Assembly: GCA_036012755.1 (NCBI GenBank)
Contig: DASCPX010000190.1
Span: 32,001-96,000 of the forward strand
Length of the DNA: 64,000 nt
Direction of reading: 5' to 3'
Source: Myxococcota bacterium
Lineage (GTDB): Bacteria; Myxococcota_A; UBA796; CAJQPC01
Position 1 is the stretch's first letter; each line of letters begins with the position of its first letter. Made by a program: the position numbers and the translations under genes. Under the pieces are notes generated by a model that was given only the letters and a program-made list of their open reading frames with translations, made no database searches and was not told the DNA's origin. Below, one piece after another: positions 19,149-46,301 of this stretch.

Positions 19149-20279
19149 TCAGCGCGTCAGGCGGCCGAGGATCTCCAGTGCGCGTCGAAGGTCTTCGTCC
19201 TTCGCGGCGAAGCTCAGGCGGAAGTGGGTCGTGTGCTGGGAGAAGGCACGCCCGGGGACGACCAGCAGATCCCGCTCGAGGGCGGCCCTCGTGAAGGAGA
19301 GATCGTCGCCGAAGGGGACCTCTGGAAAGATGTAGAAGGAACCCGTGGGCTTCGAGACGCGGTAGCCGGCGTCGATCAGGCCTTCGTAGAGCAGGTCTCG
19401 CTTGCGGCGATAGCGCTCCACCTGGTGGCTCATGTCCACGCCGAAGGCCTGCAGCGCTCCGTGCTGAGCGGGGGTCGAAGCGCAGGTGAAGGTGAACTGC
19501 TGAAGCACGAGCAGCTTCTCGATGAGCGCTGGGTCGCCGGCCACCCAGCCCAGGCGCCAGCCCGCCATGCCGTAGGTCTTGGACACGCCTCCGACCAGAA
19601 GAGCGTGGGCTCCCATGTGGCGCTTGATGCCGGCGTGCTCGCCCTCGTAGAGGAAGAGTCCGTAGAGCTCGTCGCTGACCACGACGATGCCTCGCTCTCT
19701 GCAGATCTCGGCCACCGCGGCGACCTCGTCGTCCCGAAAACAGACACCGGTGGGGTTGGCCGGGGAGTTCAGGATCAGGACGCGGGTGCGATCGGTGATG
19801 GCCGCCTCGATGCGCTCCGGGTGCAGCCTGAAGTCCGGGTAGAGGTCGTAGAAGGTGGGCGTCGCGCCGGTGATGTGGGCCAGGTTTCGGTAGATGACGA
19901 AGAAGGGGTCCGGCATGAGGACCTCGTCTCCGGGGCCCGTCAGCGCCAGCAGCGCCAGGGTGAGAGCGCCGCTGGCGCCGCTGGTGAGCATCACCCGATC
20001 GCCCTCGGGGAGGTCGAAGTGCTCCACGAGGTGGCGGTGGGTGGCCTCGACGAGCTCCGGGTAGCCCTGAGAGGAGCTGTAGCGCCCGCAGCCTTCGCGG
20101 ATCCCGCGGATGCTGGCTTCCCTGATGGGCTCCGGCACCTCGAAGTCGGCCTGGCCGATGGACAGGTCCACGCAGTGGGGGCGCCGGCGCCCTTCATCGA
20201 AGAGCTCACGGATGGCAGATGCCCGCAGGTTCTGCATGCGGTCAGCGAAGCGGAACTCGGGCAACTCGGAGGGGGCCAT
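19149..20279 (-). CDS. PLP-dependent class I/II aminotransferase (aspartate/aromatic type)
   Basis: LSIGQADF, NSPANPTG, SDELY, SKTYGMAGWRLG, FRLSFA. Confidence 0.92.
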   Translation of the reverse strand: MAPSELPEFRFADRMQNLRASAIRELFDEGRRRPHCVDLSIGQADFEVPEPIREASIRGIREGCGRYSSSQGYPELVEATHRHLVEHFDLPEGDRVMLTSGASGALTLALLALTGPGDEVLMPDPFFVIYRNLAHITGATPTFYDLYPDFRLHPERIEAAITDRTRVLILNSPANPTGVCFRDDEVAAVAEICRERGIVVVSDELYGLFLYEGEHAGIKRHMGAHALLVGGVSKTYGMAGWRLGWVAGDPALIEKLLVLQQFTFTCASTPAQHGALQAFGVDMSHQVERYRRKRDLLYEGLIDAGYRVSKPTGSFYIFPEVPFGDDLSFTRAALERDLLVVPGRAFSQHTTHFRLSFAAKDEDLRRALEILGRLTR

Positions 20280-20301
20280 GGGACGTGCTATCGAGTGAGC
20301 C

Positions 20302-20784
20302 ATGGCCGATCTACAACATCGCTTCCGGATCCTCTGCCAGATCACCCGAGCGCAGCACTTTGCGTGGCGCCAGGCGGTGGTCCGCTGCTGCCCGGACGCC
20401 GACCCCGCCAAGGTCACGGACGTCATGTGGGAGATCACCGGCGAGAGCACCGGCGCCGCCTATGCGCGGAGGCTGGATGTGGCGGAGCCCCTGTCCGCGC
20501 AGATCGCCCAGAGCATCGTGTGGTCGTCCAAGTGCATGGGCGAGGACGCCGAGGTCGAGCCCGGCGAGGGCGACGAGGCCTTCGTCCGCCACGCCGCCTG
20601 CCCATGGTTCGACTGGCACAAGCGCCTGGGCGTGCTCGAAGAGGATCGCCCCGGCTGCGACGCCTGGTTCCAGTCCACGGTCGCCGTGGTCAACCGCGAG
20701 CTGGGCACAAAGCTCCGCTGCGAGACCCTCGAGGCCCTCCCAGACGGCGACTCCTGCTGCCTGCGACGCTTCTGGGTGGAGTAG
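20302..20784 (+). CDS. Cys-rich small protein, ATC-hydrolase/DUF6125/V4R-like fold
   Basis: CPW..C..W, LPDGDSCC pattern; good codon bias. Confidence 0.65.
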   Translation: MADLQHRFRILCQITRAQHFAWRQAVVRCCPDADPAKVTDVMWEITGESTGAAYARRLDVAEPLSAQIAQSIVWSSKCMGEDAEVEPGEGDEAFVRHAACPWFDWHKRLGVLEEDRPGCDAWFQSTVAVVNRELGTKLRCETLEALPDGDSCCLRRFWVE

Positions 20785-20827
20785 TGAATCGGTGAATCGG
20801 TGAATCACCGCCGGAGCCCCGAGCGGC

Positions 20828-20916
20828 TGCAGAAACCGGGACCCTGCCGCGCACCCTCGACCAGATGGCACACAAGCGTGCAGATTCCCCGACCCTGACG
20901 CGCACCCTCGACCAGA
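20828..20916. repeat. Two 38-bp direct repeats (51-bp period) in a convergent intergenic region
   Basis: TGCAGAAACCGGGACCCTGCCGCGCACCCTCGACCAGA (20828-20865) vs TGCAGATTCCCCGACCCTGACGCGCACCCTCGACCAGA (20879-20916), 33/38 identical. Confidence 0.85.
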
Positions 20917-21070: not shown

Positions 21071-23425
21071 CTACGAGGAGCGCAGCGCCGCGAGCACCTT
21101 CTCGGGGGTGATCGGCAGGTCGCGGATGCGCACTCCGATGGCGTCGTAGATGGCGTTGGCGATGGCCGGGGCCGTGGGGGTCAGGCCGGGCTCGCCGACA
21201 CCCTTCACGCCGTAGGGGCCGGTGGGCTCGTCGGTCTCGATGAACTCGAGCTCGATGGGGAAGTCCATCTCCACCGCGGTGGGGATCTTGTAGTCGGTGA
21301 AGTTGGGGTTCAGGATGCGGCCGCCTCGGGTCTGCACCTGCTCGTAGAGGGCGTAGCCGACCCCCTGGGCGAGGGCGCCGTAGGTCTGGCCGCGCAGGGT
21401 CTGCTGGTTGATGACCTTGCCCACGTCGGTGACCGCCACCAGCTTCAAGATGCGCACGTCGCCGGTCTCGGTGTCGACCTCGACCTCGGCGCCCTGGGTG
21501 GCGTAGGAGTAGCAGGCCGACATGTTGCCGATGCCGCGGGTCCAGTCGGGGAGCTCGCTGGGCGGGTCGTAGAAGGCCTCGACCGTGAACATCTCGCCGC
21601 CGCCGTCCCGGAAGTGGGCCGCGCGCACCAGCCGCCCGAGGTCCACCCGCAGCCAAGGCTCGGTGCGGTCCTTCAGGAACACGAAGCCGTCCCGGAGCTC
21701 GAAGGCCCCTGGCCCGATGGCTCCCCTCCAGTCGCTGGGCTCGGTGAGCTCGGTCTTGCGCAGGTTGCGCTCGACCTGGCCGGCGTAGAGCTGCTCGGCG
21801 GCCTCGAAGATCCGGGCGCGCAGCTTGTCCGCGGCCATCAGCATGGCGTTGCAGGCGGTGAAGGCCCCCCGGCTCGCGTGGGTGCCCACATCCCAGGGGC
21901 AGGTGGCCGTGTCGGTCTGGTTGATGAAGATGCGCTCCGGCGGGATGCCGACGGCGTCAGAGCCGACGATCTGCAAGCTGGAGTGCAGGCCCTGGCCCAT
22001 CTCGACCCCGCCCGAGTAGACGTAGAGGTTCCCGAAGTCGTCCAGCCGCAAGATGATGCCGCTGGCGTCGCTCTTGTAGATGCGCCCCGAGCCGCCGACG
22101 TGGATCAGCGAGGCCATGCCCACTCCACGGGCCACGCCCTGACCGCGCTTGTCCTTCCAGTCCAGCCGGCGCCTGGTCGACTCGAGACACTCCCGCAGGC
22201 CGCAGGTCGTGATCTTCAGGGCCATGGGCGTGGTCTCGCCAGGCTCGTTGCAGTTCAACAGCCGCAGCTCGGCAGCGTCGATGCCGGCGGCCTCTGCGAG
22301 CTCGTCCAGGTTGCTCTCGAGCGCCCAGGTGAGCTCCGGGTTGCCGTAGCCACGCATGGCCTGGCAGTAGGTGTTGTTCGTGTAGACCAGGTCGCAGTCG
22401 AAGTGAACGGCGGGGACGCGGTAGAGCGAGGTGGCCGGCAGCAGCATCACGCTCGGGTAGGTCGCGCCCCAGGAGGCGTAGGCCCCGTTGTCCTGCACGA
22501 CGTGCAGCTTTCGGAAGGTCAGGCGACCGTCCCCGTCACAGCCCTGCTCGATGTGCACCCGAGACGACTGCCGAGGCGAGAGGTAGGCGAACTCCTGGTC
22601 CCGGTCGTAGAGCACCTTCACCGGGCGCCCGGTCTTCCAGGCCAGCAGGATGGCGATGTACTCGTAGCAGTGGGTGTCGAGCCCGGTCCCGAAACCGCCG
22701 CCAAGGGCCGGAACGGTCACCCGCGCGTTGCGGCCGGCGAGCCCCATCTGTGCGAGCGCCGAGTTGAAGTCCTTCTGGGCCAAGAAAGGGATCTGAGTCT
22801 TCGCCCAGATCCTCAGGTTCATGGAGTCGTCGAACTCGGCGATGGCGCCCGCGGTGCCCATGCAGCTCTGCTGGATGAGCGGGGTCGAGAAGTCGCCGGA
22901 CACGGTGAACGCCGAGGCCGCCCGCGCAGCGTCGAGGTCGCCAGAGATGTGGCGGAAGGTCAGGGGCAGGCGGTTGCCGCTCAGGGGCCGGCCGCGGGGG
23001 TCGACCTCGTGGACCAGGGGGGCGTCCTCGCGCAGGGCCTCGATGGGATCGAAGACACCCGGCAGGGGCTCGTACTCGACGACGACGGCGGCGGCGGCTC
23101 GGGCGGCGATGTCGGGGTCGATGGCGGCCACCGCGGCGACCTCGTCCCGGAACTGCCGCACCTTCCCGCCCTTGAGCGCGAAGTTGTCGCGCAAGAAGCC
23201 GATGCGCACCTCTGGCGTGTTGTCTGCAGTGATGACGGCGCGGACCCCCGGGATGCGCTCGGCCGCGGAGGTGTCGATGCTCAGGATGCGCGCGTGGGCG
23301 TGCTCGCTGTGGACGACAGCCCCATAGAGCATGCCCGGACGGGACAGGTCGTGGATGTAGCGGGTCTTCCCGGTGGCCTTTGCTGCCACGTCGGGGCGAA
23401 CGCTGTCCTTGCCGAGCAGGCTCAT
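21071..23425 (-). CDS. Xanthine dehydrogenase-family molybdopterin-binding subunit (putative indoleacetate 2-hydroxylase large subunit)
   Basis: KATG..Y..D, GGGFG, AMRGYG, EMGQG, HASR, GPYGVKGVGEP, LPITPEKVL. Confidence 0.92.
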   Translation of the reverse strand: MSLLGKDSVRPDVAAKATGKTRYIHDLSRPGMLYGAVVHSEHAHARILSIDTSAAERIPGVRAVITADNTPEVRIGFLRDNFALKGGKVRQFRDEVAAVAAIDPDIAARAAAAVVVEYEPLPGVFDPIEALREDAPLVHEVDPRGRPLSGNRLPLTFRHISGDLDAARAASAFTVSGDFSTPLIQQSCMGTAGAIAEFDDSMNLRIWAKTQIPFLAQKDFNSALAQMGLAGRNARVTVPALGGGFGTGLDTHCYEYIAILLAWKTGRPVKVLYDRDQEFAYLSPRQSSRVHIEQGCDGDGRLTFRKLHVVQDNGAYASWGATYPSVMLLPATSLYRVPAVHFDCDLVYTNNTYCQAMRGYGNPELTWALESNLDELAEAAGIDAAELRLLNCNEPGETTPMALKITTCGLRECLESTRRRLDWKDKRGQGVARGVGMASLIHVGGSGRIYKSDASGIILRLDDFGNLYVYSGGVEMGQGLHSSLQIVGSDAVGIPPERIFINQTDTATCPWDVGTHASRGAFTACNAMLMAADKLRARIFEAAEQLYAGQVERNLRKTELTEPSDWRGAIGPGAFELRDGFVFLKDRTEPWLRVDLGRLVRAAHFRDGGGEMFTVEAFYDPPSELPDWTRGIGNMSACYSYATQGAEVEVDTETGDVRILKLVAVTDVGKVINQQTLRGQTYGALAQGVGYALYEQVQTRGGRILNPNFTDYKIPTAVEMDFPIELEFIETDEPTGPYGVKGVGEPGLTPTAPAIANAIYDAIGVRIRDLPITPEKVLAALRSS

Positions 23426-23892
23426 GACCCACCTCGAAGCTCAGAGGCTCGCCGCACGCTCTCGACGATCTGGGCGTAGCCGGTGCAGCGGCAGAGGTTG
23501 CCCACCAGCGCCCGACGGATCTGGCGGTCTGTCGGCTCGGGCTCTCGGTCCAAGAGCGCCGTGCTCGCCATGATCATGCCCGGCGTGCAGAAGCCGCACT
23601 GGATGCCCCCCTTGTCCACGAAGGCCTGCTGCACGGCCGAGAGCTCCCCCTGGGAAGAGGCGAGCCCCTCGATGGTCGTGACCTTGCAGCCGGCCACCTC
23701 GGCGGCGGGGGTGAGACAGGCGTTCACAGCTCGGCCATCAACCAGCACGGTGCAGGCGCCGCACTCGCCCTTGCCGCAGCCTTCCTTGGTCCCGAGCTCC
23801 TGGAGCGGTCCCCTCAGCACGTCCAGCAGGAGCTCGGAGCCCCGCAGGGTGCAGGCGACCTCGAAGCCGTTGAGTTCGAAGGACAGCTCCAT
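23422..23892 (-). CDS. 2x[2Fe-2S] small subunit of the Mo hydroxylase
   Basis: GCGKGECGACTV..C, QCGFCTPG, NLCRCTGY. Confidence 0.95.
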   Translation of the reverse strand: MELSFELNGFEVACTLRGSELLLDVLRGPLQELGTKEGCGKGECGACTVLVDGRAVNACLTPAAEVAGCKVTTIEGLASSQGELSAVQQAFVDKGGIQCGFCTPGMIMASTALLDREPEPTDRQIRRALVGNLCRCTGYAQIVESVRRASELRGGS

Positions 23893-24740
23893 CAGGCCTC
23901 CCGAACGAGCGAGGCCAGAGCTCGCTTCACGAAGACGCCCACGATGGCCCGCCGGTACTCGGCGCTGCCCCTGACGTCGCTGATCGGTCTCACCTCTGCC
24001 TGGGCCGCGGCGGCCGCTCGGGCGATGAGCTCTGGGCTCGCACCCTGGCCGAGCAGCAAGGCCTCCGCCTCCCGAAGGCGCATGGCGCGAGGGCCCACCG
24101 AGCCAGCCGCCAGCCGCACCTCTGCGATGACGCCCGCCTCCATCCGAAGGGTGGCGCCGAGGTTGACGATGGCCAGGTCCATCGCCACCCGGGTCTTCTT
24201 GAAAAAGACGCTGCGCTCGCCAGGTCCTGGCTCGTCCAGCTCGATGGCGACGAGGATCTCGCCCTCTGTGAGCGCGGTCCGACCTGGTCCGACGAGGAAG
24301 GCGTCGAGATCCATCGTGCGCCTTCCGCCAGGTCCGGCCAGCCGCACCCGCGCTCCCAGGCTCAGCAGGATGGGCGTCGAGTCCGCGGCTGGGGAGGCGT
24401 TGCAGAGGTTGCCTCCGAGCGTGGCGCTGTTCTGGATCTGCACCGAGCCGATCTCTCGGAGGGCATCGGCCAGCGCAGGCCAGCGGCCGACCAGCTCGGG
24501 GCTCTCCAGGAGCTCCGAGACAGGCACCGCGGCGCCGATGCGAGCGCCCTGATCCAGCTCCAGGACCCGGAGCTCGGGGACCGCGCGCAAGGAGATGAGC
24601 GCATCTGGCTCGTGGCGGTGGTCCTTCATCTGCACGAGCAGATCCGTGCCGCCAGCGATGTAGCGAGCACCGCCGAGCCGCTGGACCAGCCGCAGCGCGC
24701 CCTCGAGGCTGGAGGGGCGGTGGTAGGGGATCGGGGTCAC
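23892..24740 (-). CDS. FAD-binding medium subunit of the Mo hydroxylase
   Basis: GTG start; YHRPSSL, AGGTDL, ATLGGNLCNASPAAD, PISDVRGSAEYR. Confidence 0.93.
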   Translation of the reverse strand: MTPIPYHRPSSLEGALRLVQRLGGARYIAGGTDLLVQMKDHRHEPDALISLRAVPELRVLELDQGARIGAAVPVSELLESPELVGRWPALADALREIGSVQIQNSATLGGNLCNASPAADSTPILLSLGARVRLAGPGGRRTMDLDAFLVGPGRTALTEGEILVAIELDEPGPGERSVFFKKTRVAMDLAIVNLGATLRMEAGVIAEVRLAAGSVGPRAMRLREAEALLLGQGASPELIARAAAAAQAEVRPISDVRGSAEYRRAIVGVFVKRALASLVREA

Positions 24741-24747
24741 GGAGGCC

Positions 24748-25953
24748 TCATGCGACGACGCCCGAGCTGCGCAGGGCTGCGGTCTCTTCGGGCCCGAGGC
24801 CGGCCTCTGCGAGGAGCGCGTCGCTGTGCTCCCCGTATGCCGGACAGAAGGGCAGGTTGCCCGAGATCGAGCTGAGGTGCTCGGTGTCGACCGCGGCTGG
24901 AGGAAGGCGCACGACGCGGCCGTCGGGGGCGACGGTGCGGAGACCGTCCCGAGCGACGAAGGGCAGGTCCATGACCCGGTCCACCGGAGTGATCGGGGCA
25001 TGGGGGACCGCCGCCCGGCGCAAGGACTCGGCGACGCGCCCGGCGGGGTGGGACCGGGTCAGCCCGCCGATGAGGGCGTGGAGCTCGGCCTTGTCCGCCC
25101 GACGGCCCTCGTTGCTGGAGAAGCGTCCCTGGTCCAGCGAAGAGAACAGCGGCTCCGCCACCAGGCGAGCCCACTGGGCGTCGCTGCCGATGGCCATGTA
25201 GATGTGGCCGTCAGCGGTCGGGTAGGCGTTCACCGGGATGAACTGGCGGTGCTCGTTGCCCGAGCGACGCAGCTCCTCGGGCGGGCTGTCCATGTCGAGC
25301 ATGGGCAGGAAGGTGTGGAGCCAGGACACGGCCGCCCGGCCCATGGACACGTCGATGCAGGCCCCCTCGCCGGTGCGCTCACGCTGCCAGAGGGCCAGCG
25401 CCACCTGGGTGAAGGCCTCGTCCCCGGCCTTCAGGTCGATCAGCGGCGGCCCGCACTGAGTCGGCGGCCCGTCCGCGGGCCCCGTGAGGTCCATGTAGCC
25501 GCAGAGGGCCTGGAGCACGGGGTCGTAGCCAGGCGTGTCGGGCTCCGCGAGCCCCATCGCAGAGATGCAGCACCAGACGAGGTCCTCGCGCGCCTGGCGC
25601 AGGGTCGCGTAGTCGATGCCCAGCTTCTGGTGGCGCGAGGGCATCGTGTTGGTGCAGAAGACGTCGACGCCGAGCTCGGTGATCAGCCGCTGCAGCACAG
25701 CCTGGCCCTCTGCGCTCTTGAGATCGATGGCGATGGCCTCCTTCCCGGCGTTGGGGGCGACGAAGTAGCTGTGGCGGTCAGCCCCGGCGACCGGCCGGCC
25801 GATGGAGCGGTTGGGGTCGCCCATCGAGCGACGTCCTGGGACCGGGGTGGGCTCGACCCGGATGACCCGCCAGCCCATGTGCACCATGCGCAGGGTGGCG
25901 TAGGACATCGACAGGGCCTGCTCGAGGCTCAGGACGACGGGGCGCTCGCTCAT
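24748..25953 (-). CDS. Class III (CaiB/BaiF) CoA transferase (IaaL-like)
   Basis: VIRVEP, NAGKEAIAIDLKS, PGYD, PLID (catalytic Asp position), PAYGEHS. Confidence 0.92.
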   Translation of the reverse strand: MSERPVVLSLEQALSMSYATLRMVHMGWRVIRVEPTPVPGRRSMGDPNRSIGRPVAGADRHSYFVAPNAGKEAIAIDLKSAEGQAVLQRLITELGVDVFCTNTMPSRHQKLGIDYATLRQAREDLVWCCISAMGLAEPDTPGYDPVLQALCGYMDLTGPADGPPTQCGPPLIDLKAGDEAFTQVALALWQRERTGEGACIDVSMGRAAVSWLHTFLPMLDMDSPPEELRRSGNEHRQFIPVNAYPTADGHIYMAIGSDAQWARLVAEPLFSSLDQGRFSSNEGRRADKAELHALIGGLTRSHPAGRVAESLRRAAVPHAPITPVDRVMDLPFVARDGLRTVAPDGRVVRLPPAAVDTEHLSSISGNLPFCPAYGEHSDALLAEAGLGPEETAALRSSGVVA

Positions 25954-27551
25954 CAAAACCTGACCGGTTCTCGGTACTTGCCGAAGACCGACTGGAGCGC
26001 TCCGCAGACCTCGCCCACGGTGGCGTAGGCCTCGACCGCGTCGATGATGGCGGGCATGGTGTTGGCTCCGGAGGAGGCGGCCTCTTCCACGGCGGCGAGC
26101 CTGCGCGCCACGGCCTCGTCGTCTCGCTCGCTGCGGACCTTGGCCAGCCGGGACCGCTGCTTGTCGGCCTCTTCCTCGCGGTAGGGGTGGAACTCGACCT
26201 CTGGCTCGTCCTCGACCTCCTGGTGGCAGTTGACGCCGACCTTCTTGAGCTCGCCGGTGCCGAACTGGAGCTCGCGCTGGTAGGCGCTGGCGTTGACGGC
26301 GGCCTGGACCTCGCCGCTGGCCACGCCGGCGACGATGCCGCCAGCGGCCTCGAGCTCGTCGATGTGGCGCAGGATCAGCGCCTCCATCTGGTTCGTGGTG
26401 GTCTCGACGAACCAGGATCCAGCGAGGGGATCGACCGTGTCGCAGAGGCCGATCTCGTTGATCAGGATCTGCTGGGTGCGCAGGGACAGCCGGGCGGCCT
26501 GTTCGGAGGGGATGGTGTAGGCCTCGTCGTAGCTGCACAGGGCCATGGTCTGGGTGCCGGACAGGGCGCTGGTCATGGCGTAGTAGGCGCCGCGGACGAT
26601 GTTGTTGTGAGGCTGCTGGATGGTCAGGCCACCGCCGCCACCGCCAGCGATCATGCGCAGCCGCATGGCCTTCGGATCCGTGACGCCGTAGCGCTCGCGC
26701 AAGAGCCGGGCCCAGAGGCGACGACCCGCGCGGAACTTCGCCACCTGCTCCCAGAGGTTGCCGAAGATGTCGAAGTTGAAGGTCAGGCCGCCAGCGCAGC
26801 GGTTCGCGTCCAGCCCCCGGTCGAGCGCTCGCTGGAGGTAGGCGCAAGCGATCGACAGGCCGTAGGCCATCTCCTGGGCGGCGTTCGCCCCGGACTCACG
26901 GATGTGGTAGCCGCAGACGCTGACCGGGCTGTACTTGGGGGCGTTGTCCGCGCAGAACTCCATGGTGTCGACCACCAGCCGGACCGAGTCCTCGACAGGG
27001 AAGATCCAGGTCCCGCGGCCGATGAACTCCTTGAGGATGTCGTTCTGGGCGGTGCCGCGCAGCCTGGCGAGGTCGTAGCCGCGCTTGCGGGCCATCGCGA
27101 AGTACATCGCCATGATGGCGCTGGCCGAGCCGTTGATGGTCAACGACACCGTGATCGCGTCCAGATCGATGCCGGCGAAGGCCTCTTCCATGTCGGCGAG
27201 GGTGTCCACCGCCATGCCTACGCGGCCGACCTCGCCCCGAGCCATGGGGTGATCCGAGTCCAACCCGCACTGGGTGGGCAGGTCGAAGGCGACGTTGAGG
27301 CCCGTGTTGCCGTGCTCGAGCAGGTAGAGGAAGCGCTCGTGGGTCTCTGCGGCGGTGCCGAAGCCGGAGTACTGGCGGATGGTCCAGGGACGGGCCCGGT
27401 ACATGTGGCGGTGGATGCCGCGGGTGAAGGGGTACTCGCCAGGTTCGCCGACACCCTCGAAGCCGCCGCTGTCCTCGACATCCGAGGCGTCGTAGATGGG
27501 CTGGATCTCCAGGCCGCACTCCCACTTCAGGGGCTCGATCTTCTTGCTCAC
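25953..27551 (-). CDS. B12-dependent acyl-CoA mutase, substrate-binding subunit (IaaH-like)
   Basis: GTG start; [52 protein letters not shown]. Confidence 0.93.
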
Positions 27552-27946
27552 GAGGCCACCTCCTCGAGGATGAAGGCCACTATCTGCTCGAAGTCGGAGC
27601 CGGTCGGGAAGACCCCTGCGACACCCAGCGCCTCCAGCGCCGCGAAGTCCCGGCGGGGCACGTTGCCGCCGACGATCCAGACCAGCTCGCCCAACAGTCC
27701 CCTGGCCTGGAGCTCCTGGCGCACCCCCTCGCAGAGCGGCAGGTGAGCCCCCGACAGCACCGACAGCCCGAGCACGTGCACCCTCTGCTGTGCGGCCGCA
27801 GCCGCGATGTCCTGGGGGGACTGGCGGAGACCGCTGTAGGTGACCTCCATGCCGGCGTCCATCAGGGCCCGGCAGAGCACCTTCGCGCCAACGTCGTGGC
27901 CGTCGAGGCCAGGCTTGGCGATGAGGACGCGGATGGACTCGCTCAT
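27548..27946 (-). CDS. Cobalamin-binding subunit of acyl-CoA mutase (IaaG-like)
   Basis: AKPGLDGHDVGAK (DxHxxG), GLSVLSGAH, VGG. Confidence 0.95.
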   Translation of the reverse strand: MSESIRVLIAKPGLDGHDVGAKVLCRALMDAGMEVTYSGLRQSPQDIAAAAAQQRVHVLGLSVLSGAHLPLCEGVRQELQARGLLGELVWIVGGNVPRRDFAALEALGVAGVFPTGSDFEQIVAFILEEVAS

Positions 27947-32865: not shown

Positions 32866-33166
32866 GCTGTTGCCCTCGGGTTCGACCGTCGCTCAGGCGA
32901 CCCGCGCTCGGCCTGGAGACGCAGCCAGTGCCCGAGGGGGAGCCAGGACGCGCAGGCCCCGTATCAGGCTGGGGGCCTCTCTTCGACCAGGATCCTGAGG
33001 TTGAACTCGAGCACGAGACGCCTCATCGGCATGGCGGGCGCGGGCGCGGGCACGCCGTGCACCGGTCAGGGACTGTCCGACCCCACGGGCGTCGGTGGAT
33101 CAACACGGCCTTCGATCTTGCAGGAGCGCGGTCGTACAAGTCCGCGCGGCAAGGAAACGCCGACGC

Positions 33167-34086: not shown

Positions 34087-35444
34087 CAGACGGTCGTCCA
34101 GGTGCCGCTCGAGTTGAGCGCGACCCAGCTGCTCCCGCTCGTCCCGACGACGCCGAGGACCTGCCCCTTCGTGCTCTCGGTGCACTCTGCGTACCCGGCA
34201 CCGCCGGAGACATCGTCCCCGACCTGGATCGTGTCGCCGGAGGCGCACTGGACCTTCAGGTTCTCGGCCACCACGCGCAGGAAGGTGTACGTGGTCCCGA
34301 TGGACGCCGCTGGCAGGTTGATCGTCAAGGCGCCGGTAGCGATCCCGTTGGTGAGCACCTTGCCCAGGTCGCCCGTGCCGATGGAGTAGGGCGAGCTGCC
34401 GCCGACGTCCTCGACCCGCGCGAGGGTGTTTCCCACCGGGTTCCCGTCGCCAGACCCGGGAAGGCTGCTGCCAAAGCGCAGCCGTCCGTCGTCGTCGACG
34501 AAGAAGTAGTGATCGGTGCCCGACTCGTCCTGGAGCTGGAGGCAGCCGCGCAGCGCCGCGGTGGGGCTCACCGCCTGGACCACGCCGCGCCGATTGACAC
34601 CCACGTCGCCTACCGTCAGCGTGGCGCTGTCGGGAGTGAAGTTCAGCAGGAGCAGCTCGTTGCCCCCGGTGAACCAGGTGTGCGTGCCTGCCTCGTCCGC
34701 CCGGTAGGTGAGCCCGCCCCCGGAGTCACGGATGCCGAAGGCGTGTCCTGACTGTTCGAGATCGACCCAGACCCGACGGTCTCCCCCGAGCGCCGTGCGC
34801 AGGATGAGATCGGTGCCTGTGGGATACATGCGCATCCAACCGGCGGTGGGGTCGCAGTCGAGGGTGAGCCGGTCACCCGCTCCGAGGGCCAGGACGAGGA
34901 TGTCGTCCGCCGTCGGCTTGTGGTTGCGGATTCGGACTCGGCCGTTCGCCGCGTTCAGGCCCAGGGTCGGGCTGGCCCAGAGCTCCAGTGTCTCTCTCGA
35001 CTCCGTGAAGCCCTTCGGCGCGCGGATGACGCCCTGGAGAACGCCGGCGCTGATGAAGCGCAGCAGCTCCCGATCTACCGCGCCGACTGGCGACGGGACC
35101 TCGATCTTCATGACCTCGCAGTCGACGCGGTAGGCGTCGCTGGAGCTCGTGGTGACCTTCACCTGGCCGGGGTCGTACTCCCAGGTGACGTCCGCGCCGC
35201 CGTTGAAGTCGAACTCCACGGCAGTGCCGGAGCTGAGCCTGGACCTCAGCGTGAGCTTGTCGGCCAACAGCTTCATGTCGTCGCTGGCAGCCGGCGCGCT
35301 GAGCATCACCTCGCCAGTCTCCGTGATCCGGAAGCGGTTGATCGGCGAGCCGCCGTTGTCGTCCTGCACAGTGAACTGGCCGCTGGTAGTGCTGCCTGAG
35401 TTCAGCTTGATGTGGAAGCTCGGGGCCCCATCAATGGTCGACAT
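34086..35444 (-). CDS. Hypothetical beta-rich protein resembling a phage tail fibre/structural protein
   Basis: 452 aa, Gly/Ser/Thr-rich, no signal peptide; RFRITETGEV, YFFVDDDGRLRF, C-terminal LTINLPAASIGTTYTF..GTWT. Confidence 0.55.
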   Translation of the reverse strand: MSTIDGAPSFHIKLNSGSTTSGQFTVQDDNGGSPINRFRITETGEVMLSAPAASDDMKLLADKLTLRSRLSSGTAVEFDFNGGADVTWEYDPGQVKVTTSSSDAYRVDCEVMKIEVPSPVGAVDRELLRFISAGVLQGVIRAPKGFTESRETLELWASPTLGLNAANGRVRIRNHKPTADDILVLALGAGDRLTLDCDPTAGWMRMYPTGTDLILRTALGGDRRVWVDLEQSGHAFGIRDSGGGLTYRADEAGTHTWFTGGNELLLLNFTPDSATLTVGDVGVNRRGVVQAVSPTAALRGCLQLQDESGTDHYFFVDDDGRLRFGSSLPGSGDGNPVGNTLARVEDVGGSSPYSIGTGDLGKVLTNGIATGALTINLPAASIGTTYTFLRVVAENLKVQCASGDTIQVGDDVSGGAGYAECTESTKGQVLGVVGTSGSSWVALNSSGTWTTV

Positions 35445-35673
35445 GATGGTCTCCCGACTCGGGCAGGATGAGGCCTCGGGCGAGATCGAGCTCGAAGGTC
35501 CCGGTGACGCCGAGCCGACGACAGGTCGCGGTCAGGTCGGTCTGGAAGGCTTGCTGCGCGATCTGGGCGCGGGCTGCCGCCAGCTCCCACTCGGCGCGAA
35601 GTCGGCCGAGGCGCTCGATGTCGATGGGTTCGAGGACCACGGGCTCCGCCGCTGACTGTTCTTCTCCGGGCAT
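35431..35673 (-). CDS. Small helical hypothetical protein (80 aa)
   Basis: ATG 35673; amphipathic helix LRAEWELAAARAQIAQQAFQ; overlaps the next gene. Confidence 0.6.
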   Translation of the reverse strand: MPGEEQSAAEPVVLEPIDIERLGRLRAEWELAAARAQIAQQAFQTDLTATCRRLGVTGTFELDLARGLILPESGDHHVDH

Positions 35674-35800
35674 GCTGCCCCCCACCCGAGCCTCCTGTGG
35701 CCACCCCCAATGGCAACCCCCCTTGCTTGGTGAATGCAAGCTACCGCGATCTTCTCGACCACTCGTCGCCGTCACCAATCCTGCGGTCACCGTGGAGACC

Positions 35801-36370
35801 TCACCGCTGGGTCGTCTTCCGTCCCGCCTCGAAGACCCGCCGGTTCGACTCCCGGTGCGCGCCGAAGGCCTCGAGAGCGCCCACGATGGCCTCGGCCCCG
35901 AATGGGAGCCAGCCCCGATCCGCCAGGACGCCCAACAACGCCACGTTCAGGCCGCGAGAGCCGCCGGCCAAGGCCGGGCCGTCGACCACGACGAGCTCCG
36001 CGATCTGTGGGCGGAGCTCTTCGAAGAAGCCCTCGATGTCCGGATAGTCCCTGCCGCTCTGGGCCAGGGAGCTGGGCGCGATGCGGCCCGAGCTCACCAC
36101 CACCCGGCTCCCGGCGTGCAGGCTGTCGCGGCAGCGCATCAGCTCCAGGGGCTCCAGGGCGATGACGACGTCCGCCCCGCGACCGGGCAGGAAAGCCCCC
36201 TGCCCCGGCCCGAGGAGCACGGTTCCCCGCACGCTCCCGCCTCGCTGGGACATGCCGTGGAGCTGGCCCAGGCGCACCGGCAGGCCCGCGGCGTGGGCGG
36301 CCTCGCCGAGGATGCGCGCAGCGGTCAGGGTGCCCTGGCCCCCGACACCCACCAGGAGCACGCCGATCAC
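35801..36370 (-). CDS. iorB: Indolepyruvate oxidoreductase beta subunit
   Basis: GTG start coupled to iorA; GVGGQG, HGMSQRGGSV, ALEPLE, NVALLG, NRRVFEAG. Confidence 0.92.
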   Translation of the reverse strand: MIGVLLVGVGGQGTLTAARILGEAAHAAGLPVRLGQLHGMSQRGGSVRGTVLLGPGQGAFLPGRGADVVIALEPLELMRCRDSLHAGSRVVVSSGRIAPSSLAQSGRDYPDIEGFFEELRPQIAELVVVDGPALAGGSRGLNVALLGVLADRGWLPFGAEAIVGALEAFGAHRESNRRVFEAGRKTTQR

Positions 36371-39300
36371 GAGGCGCCGTCCTCGACGCGGAAGATGGCG
36401 CCGTTGGGGCAGAAGTCCGCGCAGACACCGCAGCCCACGCAGATGGCCGGGTCGATGGCGATGACCCCTGCCTCGACGACGAAGGCGGGGCAGCCGAAGG
36501 TGTCGACGCAGGCCCGGCAGATCCCACAGCTCCCGCAGAGCATGCAGCGCTGGGCCTCGGCCCTGGCGCTGGCTTCGTCCACCACCTTCCCCCGGGGCAG
36601 GGCCTCTGCCCCCGAGAGCTGCAGTTCGCTGAGCCGGGTCCATGCTCCTGACAGCGGCGGCGGCGCTCGACGGTCGGCAGCCTCCTTGCCGCGCAGCTGG
36701 ACGTCGATGCCCCAGGCGGCCCGCTGGCCCTCGGCCATGGCCTGGGTGACCGTGCGCGGACCGGGCACCATGTCGCCAGCAGCGAAGAGATGCGGGTGGC
36801 TGGTCCGGCCCGTGTTCGGGTCCACCGACACGCAGCCGTCGTCCATCACCAGGTCCTGGCCGAAGTCCTGGAGCTGTTGTCCGACAGCGGTGACGACCAG
36901 GCTGCAAGGCAGGACCTGGCCACCCTCCAGCACCAGCCCCTCGGGACAGAGCCCCACCGAGCGCCGGCCCGGCATCATCACCACGCCCTCCTCACGGGCA
37001 GCCTCCACCTCGTGGAAGCGCGCGGTGAGCTCGGGCTGGAGCTCTACGACCGTGACCTTGTCGGCCCCTCGGCGCAGAGCCGTGCGAGCGACGTCCATGC
37101 CGGCGTTGCCCCCGCCGATGACGACCACCTCGCCCTCGATCTCGCCGCCCCCTCGCAAGAACGCGAGGCTCTCAGCCCGCTCCGGACCCGAGCCGGGCAG
37201 CTCCAGCTCCACCGGCCGGTAGGCACCCAGGGCGATGAAGACCGCGTCGTGCTCGCCGAGCAGGTCGGACAGGGACAGGTCCACCCCAAGCTCGCGCCCA
37301 CCCTCGAAGCGCACGCCGAGGGCCAGCACGCGCTGGATGTCTCGCTCGAGGGCCTCCAGCGGCAGGCGGAAGCGAGGAATGCCCGTCCGCAGCAGGCCGC
37401 CGGGCTCTGCTTCCCGGTCGAACAAGGTGACCTCGTAGCCGCGGAGACGCAGCTCGTGAGCCGCCGACAGACCCGCCGGCCCGGCTCCGACCACCGCCAC
37501 CGCCGCGCCGTGGGGGTCCTCGACCGAGGGCTGGTAGTCGGGCTGCCCCTGAGCCCAGTCCATCAGGAAGTGCTTGAGATCGTTCACCGCGACGGGATCG
37601 TCACCCCGCAGACAAGCGGCCTCGCAGGGTCGATCACAGATGCGACAGACCGAGTCCGGCAGCGCCGTGCGGCTCATGACCAACTCCAGCGCCAGGTCGT
37701 AGTCCCCAGAGGCGATGTAGCTGGCGTAGCCCTGGATGCAGAGCCCCAGCGGACACAGCTCCGCGCATGGAGACACCCCCAGGGCGTCGATGTTGCGCTC
37801 CAGCTCCAGGCTGCGGTTTCGCACCATGTTGCGCTGGGTGGACTGCCTGGGCCCGTGGCCACACTCCATGCCACAGCCCGAGCGCCCGCAGCTGCTGCAG
37901 CGAGCCGGATCGATGGCGAAGGTGCCGCCGTGCACGGGCTGGCCCGTCGCGCGCTCCATGTGGACCGGGCAGGGGCTCTCAGCCACCAGCACGCTCGTCC
38001 CGCTGGCGTCCTTGGCCCGCTGGAAGGCAGCCATGGCCTGCTGGAGGTCCATGGGGTCGAAGGTCTCGACGTGCCGGGCCCCGAGGGCACGGGCCACCCC
38101 GGCGATGTCCACCTTGCGATCTTCCGGGACCAGCGGATCGATGCCCGGGCTCTCTTGGAAGCCCGTCATGGCCGTGACCTGGTTGTCGAGGATGACCGCG
38201 ACGACGTCCGCGTCCTCCTTGATGGCGTCGAGCAAGGGCGGCATGCCGGCGTGGAAGAAGGTGCCGTCCCCCATGAAGCCGATGGTGCGCTTGTTCTCCA
38301 CGCGAGCCACACCCGCCGCCAGGCTGAAGCCCGCGCCCATGCAGATCAGCGCGTCCCCGGCGCCGAGGGGAGGCGCGGCGCCCAGCGTGTAGCAGCCGAT
38401 GTCGTTGAAGGCGAGGTGGTCGTCACCGAAGACGGACCGAGCCGCCAAGAAGGTCGAGCGATGAGGACAGGCCGCGCAGAGCACGGGCGGACGGAGCGGG
38501 ACGGGCTCCGGGGTGACCGGGTCTTTGGGGGGCTCTCCTCGACCCAGAGCCGCGTGCAGCCCACCCTGGATGACGGCGGGGACGTACTCGAACTCCTCGG
38601 GCAGGTGTCCGCTGCGCTTTCCGAGGATCTCCACCTCGACGCCGTGCAGGGAGACCAGCGCCAACAGCGCGTCCTCGACGAAGGGAGAGAGCTCCTCGAC
38701 CACCAGGACCCGGTCCACATCCCGAGCCAGCTGCAGCAGAGCCTGCTCCGGCAGGGGGAACACGCAGGGCAGGCGGGCATGGACGACATCCCCGATGTCC
38801 TGCTCCGCCAGCAGATCCGCCGTCGTGGCAGAGGGCACCCCCGCCGACAGGACCGCATCGCGCCCCTCACCCTCGCGGCAGAAGAGCTGCTCGGAGATGG
38901 CCCGTGCCACCTCCAGGCGCTCTCTGACCTCCACGCGCAGCCGCCTGGCGTGAGCGGGGATCGGGATGAAGCGGGAGGGGTCGCGACGGAAACCTCGGAC
39001 CTTCGGGCGGCGCAGCGAGCCCAGCTCGACCGGGGCCCGGCAGTGGGCCACCCGGGTCGTGATGCGCAGCAGCACCGGGAGCTTGCTGCGCTCGGAGAGC
39101 TCGAAGGCCAGCCGGCTGAGCTCCAGGGCCTCCGCCGGGGTGGAGGGATCCAGCACCGGCACGTGCAGCATCCGGCCCAGGTGGCGCTGGTCCTGCTCGT
39201 TGGGGCTCGTGAGACAGGAGGGATCCCCGGCGGAGACCACCACCATGCCCGCCTCTACCCCCATGTAGGGGATGGTGGACATCGGGTCCCCGGCGACCAT

Positions 39301-39576
39301 CAGCCCCAGGTGCTTCATGGCGCAGATGGAGCGAGCACCCGCCAGCGAAGCGGCGTAGCAGAGCTCCACCGCGATCTTCTCGTTCACCGCGTACTCGAAG
39401 GGAATGCCGTAGTCCCCGGCGAGCCGGGCGAAGGCGTCGGTCACCTCTGAGGACGGGGTCCCCGGATAGCCGGTCGCGAAGCCGACGCCGGACTCCAGCG
39501 CCCCCCGCACGATGGCCTCGTTTCCCAACAACAGCGGGGTGGAGCCAGGCGAGTCTCGGAGCAGCGGGTGAGGCAC
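36367..39576 (-). CDS. iorA: Indolepyruvate oxidoreductase alpha subunit fused to GltD/DPD-like FeS-flavin NAD(P)H module
   Basis: LLGNEAIVRG, YPGTPSSE, NEK, MKHLGL, RPPVLCAACPH, DIGCY, GDGTFFH..LDN..AMTG; then SPC..CP..CRICDRPCE..C, GAGPAG, GGGNAG and a C-terminal ferredoxin CVGCGVCADFCP. Confidence 0.92.
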   Translation of the reverse strand: MPHPLLRDSPGSTPLLLGNEAIVRGALESGVGFATGYPGTPSSEVTDAFARLAGDYGIPFEYAVNEKIAVELCYAASLAGARSICAMKHLGLMVAGDPMSTIPYMGVEAGMVVVSAGDPSCLTSPNEQDQRHLGRMLHVPVLDPSTPAEALELSRLAFELSERSKLPVLLRITTRVAHCRAPVELGSLRRPKVRGFRRDPSRFIPIPAHARRLRVEVRERLEVARAISEQLFCREGEGRDAVLSAGVPSATTADLLAEQDIGDVVHARLPCVFPLPEQALLQLARDVDRVLVVEELSPFVEDALLALVSLHGVEVEILGKRSGHLPEEFEYVPAVIQGGLHAALGRGEPPKDPVTPEPVPLRPPVLCAACPHRSTFLAARSVFGDDHLAFNDIGCYTLGAAPPLGAGDALICMGAGFSLAAGVARVENKRTIGFMGDGTFFHAGMPPLLDAIKEDADVVAVILDNQVTAMTGFQESPGIDPLVPEDRKVDIAGVARALGARHVETFDPMDLQQAMAAFQRAKDASGTSVLVAESPCPVHMERATGQPVHGGTFAIDPARCSSCGRSGCGMECGHGPRQSTQRNMVRNRSLELERNIDALGVSPCAELCPLGLCIQGYASYIASGDYDLALELVMSRTALPDSVCRICDRPCEAACLRGDDPVAVNDLKHFLMDWAQGQPDYQPSVEDPHGAAVAVVGAGPAGLSAAHELRLRGYEVTLFDREAEPGGLLRTGIPRFRLPLEALERDIQRVLALGVRFEGGRELGVDLSLSDLLGEHDAVFIALGAYRPVELELPGSGPERAESLAFLRGGGEIEGEVVVIGGGNAGMDVARTALRRGADKVTVVELQPELTARFHEVEAAREEGVVMMPGRRSVGLCPEGLVLEGGQVLPCSLVVTAVGQQLQDFGQDLVMDDGCVSVDPNTGRTSHPHLFAAGDMVPGPRTVTQAMAEGQRAAWGIDVQLRGKEAADRRAPPPLSGAWTRLSELQLSGAEALPRGKVVDEASARAEAQRCMLCGSCGICRACVDTFGCPAFVVEAGVIAIDPAICVGCGVCADFCPNGAIFRVEDGAS

Positions 39577-39585
39577 TCCCTGGTG

Positions 39586-40770
<1,185 letters not shown>

Positions 40771-40795
40771 TTGGGACTCCGTGTCGAAGGTGTGC

Positions 40796-42820
40796 TCAGC
40801 CGGTCTTGGAGAAGTCGGGGCGCTTGCGGCCCAGGAAGCAGGTCACGCCCTCTGTCGCGGCGGCGGTGCAGGCGCTGTCACCGAAGGCGGCGTAGCCCAG
40901 CTCCAGGGCCTCATCGAGGGTGGGCGCGGCGGCGGCGGCGCTGATCGCCCTGCCGATGATGCCGATGACCTCTACGCTCAACAGCTGCTTGCCGGCCATG
41001 GGCTCGACGGCGGGCAGCTCGCCGAGCTCGACCGGGCCTTCCTGGATGCGCGGCAGGTCAGAGGCCAGCTCACCGACCCGGGCCGCGGCCAGCTGGACCA
41101 GCCCGAGGTAGTCGTCAGCGATGCCGTCGAGGATGCCCAGCTCCAGGGCGTTGTTGGCCTTCAGCCTCGTCGCGGTGCGCAGCATCTCGTTGAAGACGGA
41201 GGCTGCCTGCGGCCAGCGACGGTAGGGCACCACCATGCCGCCGATGCCGGGGGCGATGCCGAGGGTGATCTCGGGGAACTGGAGGAAGGCCCTCTTGGAG
41301 GCGACGATGCCGTGGCAGCGCAGCGCGAGCTCGAGTCCTCCTCCCAGGGCCATGCCGTTGAGCGCGGCGACGACGGGCTTGTCCATGCCGTCGAGGTGGC
41401 GCAGCAGGTGGCTGCAGTCCCGGGCGTACTGGACGGAGAGCTCCTTGTCGCCGAGGCACTTCGGGAAGCGCCCGATGTCCGCACCAGCGCAGAAGGCCTT
41501 TTCGCCGTAGCCGACGATGACGAAGCCCTTCACCGCGGGGTCGTTCTCGTGGGTCTTGATGGCGGCCAGGAGCTCGTTGGTGACTGTGTCGTCCAGGGCG
41601 TTCATGGCCTGGGGCCGACGCATGGTCAGCACCTTCACGTCGCCGAGATCATCCACCAGCACGTGCTGGGAGAACTCGGTGTACTCGGCCAGCGCTTTTT
41701 CGGGCCCCGGACCACCGGGGCGCTGCTCGGCGAAGCCGGCGTTGATCGCGGCCACGTCTTCGTCGCCCAGGCGAGCCATCAGGCCGAGGGGGCCCTGCTT
41801 GAAGCCCAACGCCAGGGTGCAGCCCAGCTCGAGGTCGGCCTGGGAGCCGATGCCCCGGTCGAGGATGTCGTAGCTCTGGGAGAACAGCGAGCCCAGGATG
41901 CGGGTGCGCACCATCGAGGTCGTCTCGTCGCTGACCTCGATCCGCTGCCCCGGCTTCAGGGTCACCCAGGTGTCGACGGAGCGGAAGAGGGAGGCCGGAC
42001 GGTAGTGCTCGCCCTCCTGCATCTGCAGGGTGTTGGTGTGCCAGATGATCGGGTTGCCCCGGGCCAGGTTCAGGACGAAGAAGGGCCCGGCGTGCACGTA
42101 GTCGTGGGCGACGCTGTCGACCTCCAGCGTGGTGGCGCCCTCGTCGAGGCAGAGCACCGCCTCGTTGCACCAGTTGTCGAAGACCCGGTCGAGCATGAAG
42201 CAGAGGGCGTCGTCCGTGATCAGCGGCACCTTTCCGGTGGTGGCGAAGAGCCAGCGCAGCCAGGAGACGACCTCCTCGTCGCCCTTGTCCCAGGCGATGA
42301 CCTCGACCGCCGGGTTGCGCCAGGCCGGAGCGAAGAAGTGGGTGACCGTCGTGCGGCCGGGGTGCTGCAGCTCGCAGAAGAGCTCGGAGGCCGGCAGCGA
42401 GCTGGTGTTGGAGGTGATGACGCAGTCCTGATCCACCACAGCCTCGATCATCGAGAAGATCTTGCGCTTGAGCGGGAGATCCTCCGTCGCGGCCTCGATG
42501 ACCCAGTCGCAACCTGCCATGTCGGCGTAGTCGGTGGTCGTCGTGATGTTCTGCTGGACCTCCTCTGCCTGCTCGGGGCTCATCTTGCGGCGGGCCACCC
42601 CCTTCGCGGCGTACTTGCCATAGCGGCCGACGGCGGCCTGCAGGGCCTGCTCGTTGATGTCCACGAGCACGAGCTCGAGGCCCGGGATGGCGCTCTTGAG
42701 GTAGTACCCGATGTCAGGGCCGATGGTCCCTGCACCCACGATGGCGACCCGCTTGGGCAGGGGCCGGGAGGGCTCGATGAGGAGGGGATTCAGAGGAAGG
42801 GCAGCTGTTCCAATGGCCAT
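40796..42820 (-). CDS. 3-hydroxyacyl-CoA dehydrogenase / enoyl-CoA hydratase fusion (IaaP-like)
   Basis: GAGTIG, EAATEDL, SNTSSL, HFFAP; then AFCAGADI, GGGLEL, FPEITLG. Confidence 0.93.
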   Translation of the reverse strand: MAIGTAALPLNPLLIEPSRPLPKRVAIVGAGTIGPDIGYYLKSAIPGLELVLVDINEQALQAAVGRYGKYAAKGVARRKMSPEQAEEVQQNITTTTDYADMAGCDWVIEAATEDLPLKRKIFSMIEAVVDQDCVITSNTSSLPASELFCELQHPGRTTVTHFFAPAWRNPAVEVIAWDKGDEEVVSWLRWLFATTGKVPLITDDALCFMLDRVFDNWCNEAVLCLDEGATTLEVDSVAHDYVHAGPFFVLNLARGNPIIWHTNTLQMQEGEHYRPASLFRSVDTWVTLKPGQRIEVSDETTSMVRTRILGSLFSQSYDILDRGIGSQADLELGCTLALGFKQGPLGLMARLGDEDVAAINAGFAEQRPGGPGPEKALAEYTEFSQHVLVDDLGDVKVLTMRRPQAMNALDDTVTNELLAAIKTHENDPAVKGFVIVGYGEKAFCAGADIGRFPKCLGDKELSVQYARDCSHLLRHLDGMDKPVVAALNGMALGGGLELALRCHGIVASKRAFLQFPEITLGIAPGIGGMVVPYRRWPQAASVFNEMLRTATRLKANNALELGILDGIADDYLGLVQLAAARVGELASDLPRIQEGPVELGELPAVEPMAGKQLLSVEVIGIIGRAISAAAAAPTLDEALELGYAAFGDSACTAAATEGVTCFLGRKRPDFSKTG

Positions 42821-46254: not shown

Positions 46255-46301
46255 TGCAGGATCCGGATGTTCGCGCCCCGCCGCTGAGATAGGTCACAGC
46301 C

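Follow-up and report, generated by a model that had tools for sequence, protein, structure and literature searches.

Which pathway is encoded by a gene cluster that combines an indolepyruvate oxidoreductase (IOR), an ATP-dependent lactamase, a B12-dependent mutase and a molybdenum (Mo) hydroxylase, and what compound feeds it? The cluster lies in a 64,000-nucleotide stretch of DNA, hereafter the window, from a Myxococcota bacterium (host genome G000, contig C190, G000:C190:32001-96000; 69% GC). An earlier note on the window, made from its sequence alone, had proposed a complete anaerobic one-locus route for tryptophan and auxin through the iaa pathway of indole-3-acetate degradation. Our analysis indicates that the cluster likely serves iaa-type degradation of the indole ring, with tryptophan and not free indoleacetate as its feed. 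As judged from its sequence, it works like the iaa pathway and is a variant of a known pathway, but it lacks the ligase, the binding protein and the regulators and so departs from a canonical iaa operon.

Genes were called by GC-frame filtering of open reading frames (ORFs) together with Pfam and NCBIfam family scans. This resulted in 13 intact minus-strand genes, from a 3-hydroxyacyl-CoA dehydrogenase/enoyl-CoA hydratase fusion (HAD/ECH; 40796-42820) to the large subunit of the Mo hydroxylase (21071-23425), followed by a class I aminotransferase; none of the cluster genes has an internal stop. In the list, percentages refer to the best match of three proxy iaa loci, introduced below, in the host genome and, where given, to their next match.

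40796..42820, minus strand: HAD/ECH fusion, 674 aa, IaaP-like by function (Pfam 3HCDH_N + ECH_1)
39586..40770, minus strand: thiolase, 394 aa, IaaA-like (Pfam; 55-56%, next 28-29%)
36367..39576, minus strand: IorA, 1,069 aa, with an inserted GltD/Nfn-like Fe-S flavin module (TIGR03336; Fer4_20 + Pyr_redox_2)
35801..36370, minus strand: IorB, 189 aa (Pfam POR; the IOR beta models match best in NCBIfam but stay below cut-off)
32866..35800, minus strand: unrelated 2.9-kb insertion with three ORFs, between iorB and hydA
30787..32865, minus strand: ATP-dependent lactamase subunit A (hydA), 692 aa, IaaC-like (Pfam; two DxGGT motifs; 58-59%)
29058..30794, minus strand: lactamase subunit B (hydB), 578 aa, IaaE-like (73-74%; tree)
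27943..29061, minus strand: predicted decarboxylating (2-amino)benzylmalonyl-CoA dehydrogenase, IaaF orthologue, 372 aa (comparison with EbN1 IaaF; GGG at 355-357; tree)
27548..27946, minus strand: B12-binding mutase small subunit (mutS), 132 aa, IaaG-like (TIGR00640; DxHxxG motif; 50-53%)
25953..27551, minus strand: acyl-CoA mutase large subunit (mutL), 532 aa, IaaH-like (62-64%; glycine-rich motif; tree)
24748..25953, minus strand: class III CoA transferase, 401 aa, IaaL-like (Pfam; 50-53%, next 30-32%)
23892..24740, minus strand: Mo-hydroxylase FAD subunit, 282 aa, IaaI-like (Pfam; 39-44%, a thin margin, tied in one of the three proxies)
23422..23892, minus strand: Mo-hydroxylase 2Fe-2S subunit, 156 aa, IaaJ-like (Pfam; 46-47%, a thin margin)
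21071..23425, minus strand: Mo-hydroxylase large subunit, 784 aa, IaaK-like (40-42%, next 36-38%; motifs; branch support 93)
20302..20784, plus strand: V4R/ATC-hydrolase-like Cys-containing protein, 160 aa (weak PF14196; Atlas 0.97)
19149..20279, minus strand: class I pyridoxal phosphate aminotransferase, 376 aa from its likely start (Pfam/NCBIfam; substrate putative)

Of the 12 junctions among the 13 cluster genes, 11 measure -8 to +25 nt, and the iorB-hydA junction measures 2,935 nt. The co-oriented, mostly overlapping gene set described earlier therefore stands for the 13 genes and the aminotransferase, except for this split; all genes named at that time are present, but the plus-strand V4R-like gene and the flavin module of IorA had been overlooked. 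No ligase, binding protein, regulator or ring reductase was found among the cluster ORFs scanned with Pfam and NCBIfam, nor were the IaaM binding protein and IaaQR regulator families, the search being limited to the cluster.

The iaa assignment is carried most directly by the acyl-CoA dehydrogenase (ACAD). The characterised IaaF of Aromatoleum aromaticum EbN1 (P0385; CAI07262/WP_011236983, accessions as printed in PMC8360864) was located by protein search and cluster look-up, and the window ACAD is identical to WP_011236983 at 211 of 373 positions (57%). It is also the best match of EbN1 IaaF in the host genome (403 bits; next 233 bits, 39%), and it keeps the GGG (355-357) that, in place of YEG, defines IaaF in PMC8360864. 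In a tree with 10 host paralogues and without P0385 itself, 12 named Thauera/Aromatoleum IaaF proteins fall within a mostly proteobacterial clade (support 98) that is sister to the clade of the window (99), the two being joined at 100 and the paralogues falling apart from this joint branch; this and all other trees were built in quick mode. For the remaining Iaa proteins, three loci with an ACAD 79-80% identical to EbN1 IaaF served as proxies in one-way searches into the host genome. Each of nine other proxy-locus genes has a window gene as its best genome match, with wide margins for the thiolase, lactamase, mutase and transferase and thin ones for the Mo enzyme. By these matches, and by trees of MutL, HydB and the CoA transferase, the counterparts of the lactamase pair, mutase, transferase and thiolase all stand in one cluster. 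The proxy order (thiolase, ligase, hydA, hydB, ACAD, mutS, mutL, three Mo genes, transferase) follows the iaa letters, of which B, C, E, F, G, H and L are assigned from published papers. We conclude from these comparisons that the cluster core is assignable to the iaa pathway, with IaaF orthology established directly, so that this part of the earlier note is upheld.

The same gene set recurs elsewhere. A pattern-based scan for lactamase B, biased toward close relatives, resulted in 55 loci at 70-87% identity, many of them cut by contig ends or by the 10-kb flank. The neighbours of the hydantoinase B homologue (HydB) in these loci include the ACAD in 48, MutS in 48, MutL in 48, the CoA transferase in 39 and the Mo large subunit in 37, and because the set recurs in this way it is not a chance association; HAD/ECH homologues at 65-74% were found in four of the 55. 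Trees of the ACAD, HydB and the Mo subunit separate two clades, one mostly proteobacterial and one containing the window, whose records are titled Myxococcota, Planctomycetota or Gemmatimonadota or carry mixed labels; the window cluster is thus sister to the iaa clade, in non-proteobacterial hosts. In the mutase tree, the proteobacterial rows are nested among the remaining rows. Other protein searches gave a single source name for IaaF (P0065, 68%). A primer-pattern metagenome scan for EbN1-like iaaF gave 32 matches and no IaaF (best 38-39%), a plasmid search found no IaaF orthologue among the best 25 of 522 records (top 42%), no Iaa structure was found in the Protein Data Bank, and the supplements of PMC9765128 drawn on hold no rows for iaaA/B/C/K/P.

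Other family identities fared worse. A housekeeping methylmalonyl-CoA mutase was ruled out, as the large subunit has a glycine-rich stretch in 49 of 49 cluster rows where the host's two other mutases have HxQTSG, and it stands apart from both in the tree. The Tyr and Arg positions of methylmalonyl-CoA mutase are retained, and we infer a larger pocket in the window mutase. For the lactamase, caprolactamase and acetophenone carboxylase were rejected (CapA 678 and CapB 368 against an NCBIfam cut-off of 1000; Apc lower), as was 4-hydroxybenzoyl-CoA reductase for the Mo enzyme (500 of 995 bits, exceeded by two host paralogues). The Mo large subunit falls in a joint branch with its iaa counterparts (support 93), with which it has motifs in common. 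Two sets of 4-hydroxybenzoyl-CoA-reductase-like Mo enzymes, below cut-off, lie elsewhere in the host genome (G000:C137:172948-176747 and C112:82066-85691). In a Burkholderiales family sample, lactamases at 55-58% make up a second clade (L121, L122, L124-L128), which forms a separate branch and has no mutase nearby; three of its loci have a GGG-type dehydrogenase without a mutase, and two lie beside iaa Mo/transferase genes.

If the core is of the iaa type, the question becomes how the substrate enters it. IorA scores 596 of 651 bits (TIGR03336) and IorB 127 of 206 bits (TIGR03334), which is below cut-off, although these remain the best-matching families, and the thiamine diphosphate (ThDP) motif and Fe-S cysteines are conserved across the IorA alignment. 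Directly upstream of hydA, a co-oriented iorB was found in 21 of the 55 loci and a CoA ligase in eight, but never both; in two proteobacterial loci both are displaced. A whole-genome set was assembled from the host and 49 of the 55 loci, giving 30 clade genomes and 20 others of unstated or partial completeness (L042, L045, L047, L048, L052 and L055, mostly near-duplicates or fragments, were left out). Window-type IorA (at least 48%) occurs in 29 of the 30 clade genomes, and matches at 34-44% occur in nine of the 20 others. Ligase matches at E<=1e-140, obtained with a proteobacterial query and at most 30 scored candidates per genome, occur in none of the 30 clade genomes versus 14 of the 20 others. 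The host's best match to the ligase-slot proxy is at 37%, no IaaB ligase is present in the cluster, and within the host's family IorA and HydB co-occur in the same two of 19 genomes. The Fig. 1 legend of PMC8360864 gives IaaB activation to indoleacetyl-CoA as the first step of the pathway, which differs from the order of free acids with late CoA attachment proposed earlier, and a study on gut acetogens (bioRxiv 10.64898/2026.01.29.702580) describes the conversion of indolepyruvate to indoleacetyl-CoA by an aromatic 2-oxoacid:ferredoxin oxidoreductase (OFOR). The IOR fits the pathway because indoleacetyl-CoA is formed first, and the exchange of ligase for IOR is explained because the IOR would yield directly the compound at which this CoA-first order starts. 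With the ligase slot and the TrpB2 neighbours described below, the IOR appears well supported by genomic context as the upstream entry. A different, single-chain (fused-type) IOR family lies near five proteobacterial iaa loci (L014:1090-4572, L117, L119, L120 and L129).

The IorA of the window differs from known IORs by an inserted module. It has the two-subunit ThDP/Fe-S layout of IorAB, but residues of about 600-965 match NfnA, NfnI and GltD chains, and in all 22 aligned IorA proteins this GltD/Nfn-like module splits the C-terminal ferredoxin domain. An acidic residue after the second Rossmann strand usually indicates NAD+, and YRR NADP+; the former is present in 20 of the 22 proteins and the latter in two, so the flavin module probably reduces NAD+. 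In the phenylglyoxylate:NAD+ oxidoreductase PadEFGHI of Aromatoleum/Thauera, 2-oxoacid oxidation is likewise coupled to a pyridine nucleotide via a GltD-like flavoprotein, which is a separate subunit there, whereas the module of the window is inside IorA. Unlike IorAB and the aromatic OFORs of gut acetogens, the window IorA has an insert of ~370 residues and its product would be degraded further rather than excreted. No description of a GltD-like module fused into IorA was found in the literature searched, a weak negative.

Neighbouring genes in relatives point to tryptophan. TrpB2 converts indole to tryptophan. Its gene lies within the cluster in three Polyangiaceae-type loci (L031:21074-21712, L037:1460-3361 and L038:13843-14529) and beside window-type IorA in G034, G218, G223 and G224, with none in the host, which suggests that free indole enters via tryptophan where TrpB2 is in the cluster. 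TrpB2 (14 of 30 clade genomes) and an orthologue of the window aminotransferase (nine of 30) never occur together and mark different kin groups. The closest solved relatives of the aminotransferase are aspartate and aromatic aminotransferases. Between it and the Mo large subunit lies the V4R-like gene, which is found in 18 of the 30 clade genomes and in none of the 20 others. A single-sequence model of its product (predicted local distance difference test 59, low confidence) resembles BET3, H-NOX and MopR folds, and the protein possibly binds a ligand. Its start is ~20 nt from that of the aminotransferase, which leaves little room for divergent promoters.

Several observations weigh against this reading. 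Direct comparison with an EbN1 protein was made for IaaF, the nine further genes being compared via proxy loci, and GGG is also present in three more distant dehydrogenases from loci without a mutase and is therefore not exclusive. Identity between the Mo enzyme and proxy IaaK reaches only 40-42% (host paralogues 36-38%), and several motif positions differ. The ligase and IOR slots track the two clades, so that the counts represent a clade-wide trait and few independent events, and 40-45% ligase matches in six of the 30 clade genomes are possibly divergent IaaB, given the proteobacterial query. Two of the five proteobacterial loci with a fused-type IOR keep the ligase at hydA, and IorAB is also present in aerobic iad loci that run through isatinic acid. 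The aminotransferase orthologue (at least 54%) occurs in only nine of the 30 clade genomes, adjoining the cluster in eight, and the window protein passes no substrate-specific family cut-off; the earlier upstream extension thus holds for the IOR, inferred from context, and is weak for the aminotransferase. Finally, the insertion may uncouple the two halves of the cluster.

Could the core instead degrade indoleacetate from outside the cell, with activation by the CoA transferase or by an unlinked ligase, while IorAB converts (2-aminophenyl)glyoxylate to 2-aminobenzoyl-CoA or acts on all aryl-pyruvates, mainly phenylpyruvate? We consider this unlikely. It would accord with what is described for the iad loci, in which iadAB are IOR genes and isatinic acid and anthranilate are formed, with the description of EbN1 IorAB as a phenylpyruvate enzyme, with the intermolecular transfer activity of IaaL (PMC8360864), with the ligase homologues at 37% in the host and with one study in which IOR substrate range was not predictable from sequence. 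Against it, IorAB occupies the ligase slot, a close ligase occurs in none of the 30 clade genomes, the recurring neighbours are TrpB2 and an aminotransferase, and the scanned cluster has no isatin hydrolase or dioxygenase. The use of auxin proposed in the earlier note is likewise doubtful, since no close IaaB-like ligase was found.

In the preferred, tryptophan-fed reading, the aminotransferase would convert tryptophan to indolepyruvate, which is the weakest step. IorAB would then convert indolepyruvate and CoA to indoleacetyl-CoA and CO2, a reaction shown for other aromatic OFORs, and electrons would pass within the IorA chain to the flavin module and then, from its motifs, probably to NAD+. 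The Mo enzyme would next hydroxylate C2 in a water-dependent reaction, as the literature proposes for IaaIJK, and HydAB would open the lactam at the expense of ATP, as proposed for IaaCE, to give (2-aminophenyl)succinyl-CoA. A CoA shift by the transferase and B12-dependent rearrangement would lead to (2-aminobenzyl)malonyl-CoA, from which the IaaF orthologue would form 2-aminocinnamoyl-CoA by oxidative decarboxylation; this IaaF reaction has been shown in EbN1 with a proxy substrate. One round of beta-oxidation would yield 2-aminobenzoyl-CoA and acetyl-CoA, the end point of the cluster, after which an unlinked class I benzoyl-CoA reductase of the 3-methylbenzoyl-CoA reductase (MBR) type would act together with had, oah and dch products, most likely during nitrate respiration.

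Genes for ring reduction were found on other contigs of the host. On contig C71, bzdR (over cut-off) faces four bcrCBAD-like reductase genes encoding two Fe-S subunits and two ATPases, which are below the Bcr and Bzd cut-offs; Rnf and a 2-oxoacid:ferredoxin oxidoreductase are encoded close by. Among solved structures, the best match is 3-methylbenzoyl-CoA reductase (MbdO 9G87, E 1.7e-158, versus BzdO 1e-25), and the enzyme is accordingly classed by similarity as a class I benzoyl-CoA reductase of the MBR type, unlinked to the cluster. On contig C70, had and oah pass their cut-offs and a dch-like gene falls short of its own; oah was not found in two of four other genomes tested. In one relative (G031; L104:13489-18471, G031:C260), the cluster follows immediately on an MBR-type reductase operon with bzdR (75-78% identity to that of the host), and the two form one locus of about 26 kb. 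The host genome also contains MeaB, MoaA and TrpD, so that the benzoyl-CoA reductase, MeaB and Mo-cofactor genes whose presence the earlier note had asked about were found. Its claim of a complete one-locus route was overstated, as the cluster is interrupted by the insertion, ends at 2-aminobenzoyl-CoA and has its ring reduction on other contigs. A glycyl-radical activating enzyme and a short-chain dehydrogenase/reductase lie upstream of bzdR (G000:C71:92480-94819; L100).

It is very unlikely that the same chemistry acts on a substituted (halogenated, methylated or hydroxylated) tryptophan or indole to give a substituted 2-aminobenzoyl-CoA. The far greater divergence of the Mo large subunit (40-42%) than of lactamase B (73-74%) or the mutase (62-64%), the closeness of the linked reductase to methylbenzoyl-CoA reductase and the clade-specific V4R-like protein would fit such a substrate, but the pocket motifs of the mutase and dehydrogenase are identical to those of the canonical clade, the window-type MBR reductase is present in only nine of the 50 genomes, and the TrpB2 linkage points toward plain tryptophan.

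The host itself groups by RpoB with genomes titled Myxococcota (98), outside Polyangiales, as the Myxococcota-like host proposed earlier would predict. NarG exceeds its cut-off, and a subunit of an aa3-like oxidase reaches 599 of 671 bits. The anaerobic label given before is better read as oxygen-independent chemistry, in a host that probably reduces nitrate facultatively. Searches of the 96%-complete host genome found no tryptophan dioxygenase, kynureninase, AbmA or BoxB. All four comparison genomes have matches to tryptophan dioxygenase and BoxB, and the iaa-type cluster therefore often coexists with aerobic routes; Aromatoleum uses its iaa genes both in the presence and in the absence of oxygen. 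The lactamase orthologue occurs in only two of 31 genomes of the host's order and the closest ACAD is from a Gemmatimonadota genome, which makes sideways transfer of the cluster likely. Window DNA is present in marine metagenomes. A formate-dehydrogenase-like molybdopterin gene elsewhere in the host has one in-frame TGA, probably selenocysteine (G000:C59:124773-127463; L140).

A wider proposal, held tentatively and just short of an even chance, is that the tryptophan-fed cluster supports ligase-free, CoA-bound, oxygen-independent mineralisation of tryptophan (and of free indole where TrpB2 is attached), with a single-chain NAD+-reducing IOR, that sideways transfer has carried it between Myxococcota, Planctomycetota and Gemmatimonadota, and that the MBR-type enzyme is the 2-aminobenzoyl-CoA reductase here.

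Aklujkar et al. are said to have proposed in 2014 that Ferroglobus placidus, an archaeal strict anaerobe with an electron-transfer flavoprotein in its operon, channels tryptophan via indolepyruvate and indoleacetyl-CoA into iaa-like genes. The iaa cluster (iaaA-M, P-R) of EbN1 and A. evansii KB740, which degrades indoleacetate anaerobically to 2-aminobenzoyl-CoA, resembles that of the window in its IaaF orthologue, lactamase pair, split B12 mutase, class III CoA transferase, three-part Mo hydroxylase and thiolase, and the order hydA-hydB-ACAD-mutS-mutL is that of the proxies. The window cluster differs in having no IaaB ligase, binding protein or regulators, in having IorA(GltD)-IorB in the ligase slot, in its CoA transferase preceding rather than following the Mo genes, and in its extra aminotransferase and V4R-like gene. 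The aerobic iad loci of Variovorax and Bradyrhizobium (iadAB = iorAB) also carry IOR genes within an indoleacetate catabolic locus, but they use a dioxygenase route through isatin, with no mutase or Mo hydroxylase named in the passages used. An IaaF orthologue is reported for F. placidus in PMC8360864, and PMC9613470, PMC12852158, PMC8453981 and PMC9765128 were also drawn on. Full-text literature searches, which did not cover the main papers on the pathway, found no description of an IOR-containing iaa cluster.

Few cultured bacteria are known to open the indole ring without oxygen, and their chemistry is mostly presented as auxin degradation. A cluster with an IOR and no ligase suggests that protein-derived tryptophan is a main entry point in lineages of marine, soil and groundwater habitats that have not been cultured. 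The cluster offers a natural test case for a Mo hydroxylase and lactamase acting on CoA thioesters, steps that are only proposed in the literature drawn on, and two tractable enzymes, the IOR with its built-in flavin module and the MBR-type reductase that is physically linked in one relative.

The iorB-hydA gap holds an 80-aa ORF (35431-35673), a 452-aa ORF (34086-35444) that resembles phage proteins, and an RCC1-repeat lipoprotein gene (33167-34086) that is frameshifted in a short repeat, its signal peptide and repeats being in different frames. The composition of the insertion is that of the host, and a PHROGs search of it gave no real match. Misassembly is an unlikely origin, as both junctions are bridged without differences by contigs of runs X2 and X6; these contigs break at the short repeat near 33990-34017, so that no piece spans the entire insertion, and X2 is possibly the source run and X6 comes from a study with possible source runs, which leaves their independence from the source unclear. 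Two other loci have gaps of 1.9-2.3 kb at this junction, each with a long ORF (L022:6029-7920 and L024:5579-7875), and with different-sized insertions in three genomes the junction is a possible insertion hot spot. That the cluster is broken with one half expressed, or is decaying, is highly improbable: the coupled junction has been replaced by an insertion with a frameshifted gene and the V4R-like gene has the opposite orientation to that in four close relatives, but none of the 14 pathway ORFs is disrupted, their identity to the closest relative is 51-87%, the inserted genes are co-oriented with the cluster, a weak scan in GC-rich DNA found no terminator-like site within the insertion, and insertions at the same junction occur in the two other genomes. 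A promoter scan gave no match, a result that carries no information at 69% GC.

Outside the cluster, a gene for a bacterial alpha-2-macroglobulin (1,981 aa, window 13128-19073) lies on the same strand directly downstream of the aminotransferase, and the region upstream of the cluster (window 43972-59784) encodes a MopE-repeat protein, M23 and M15 peptidases and a WD40 protein.

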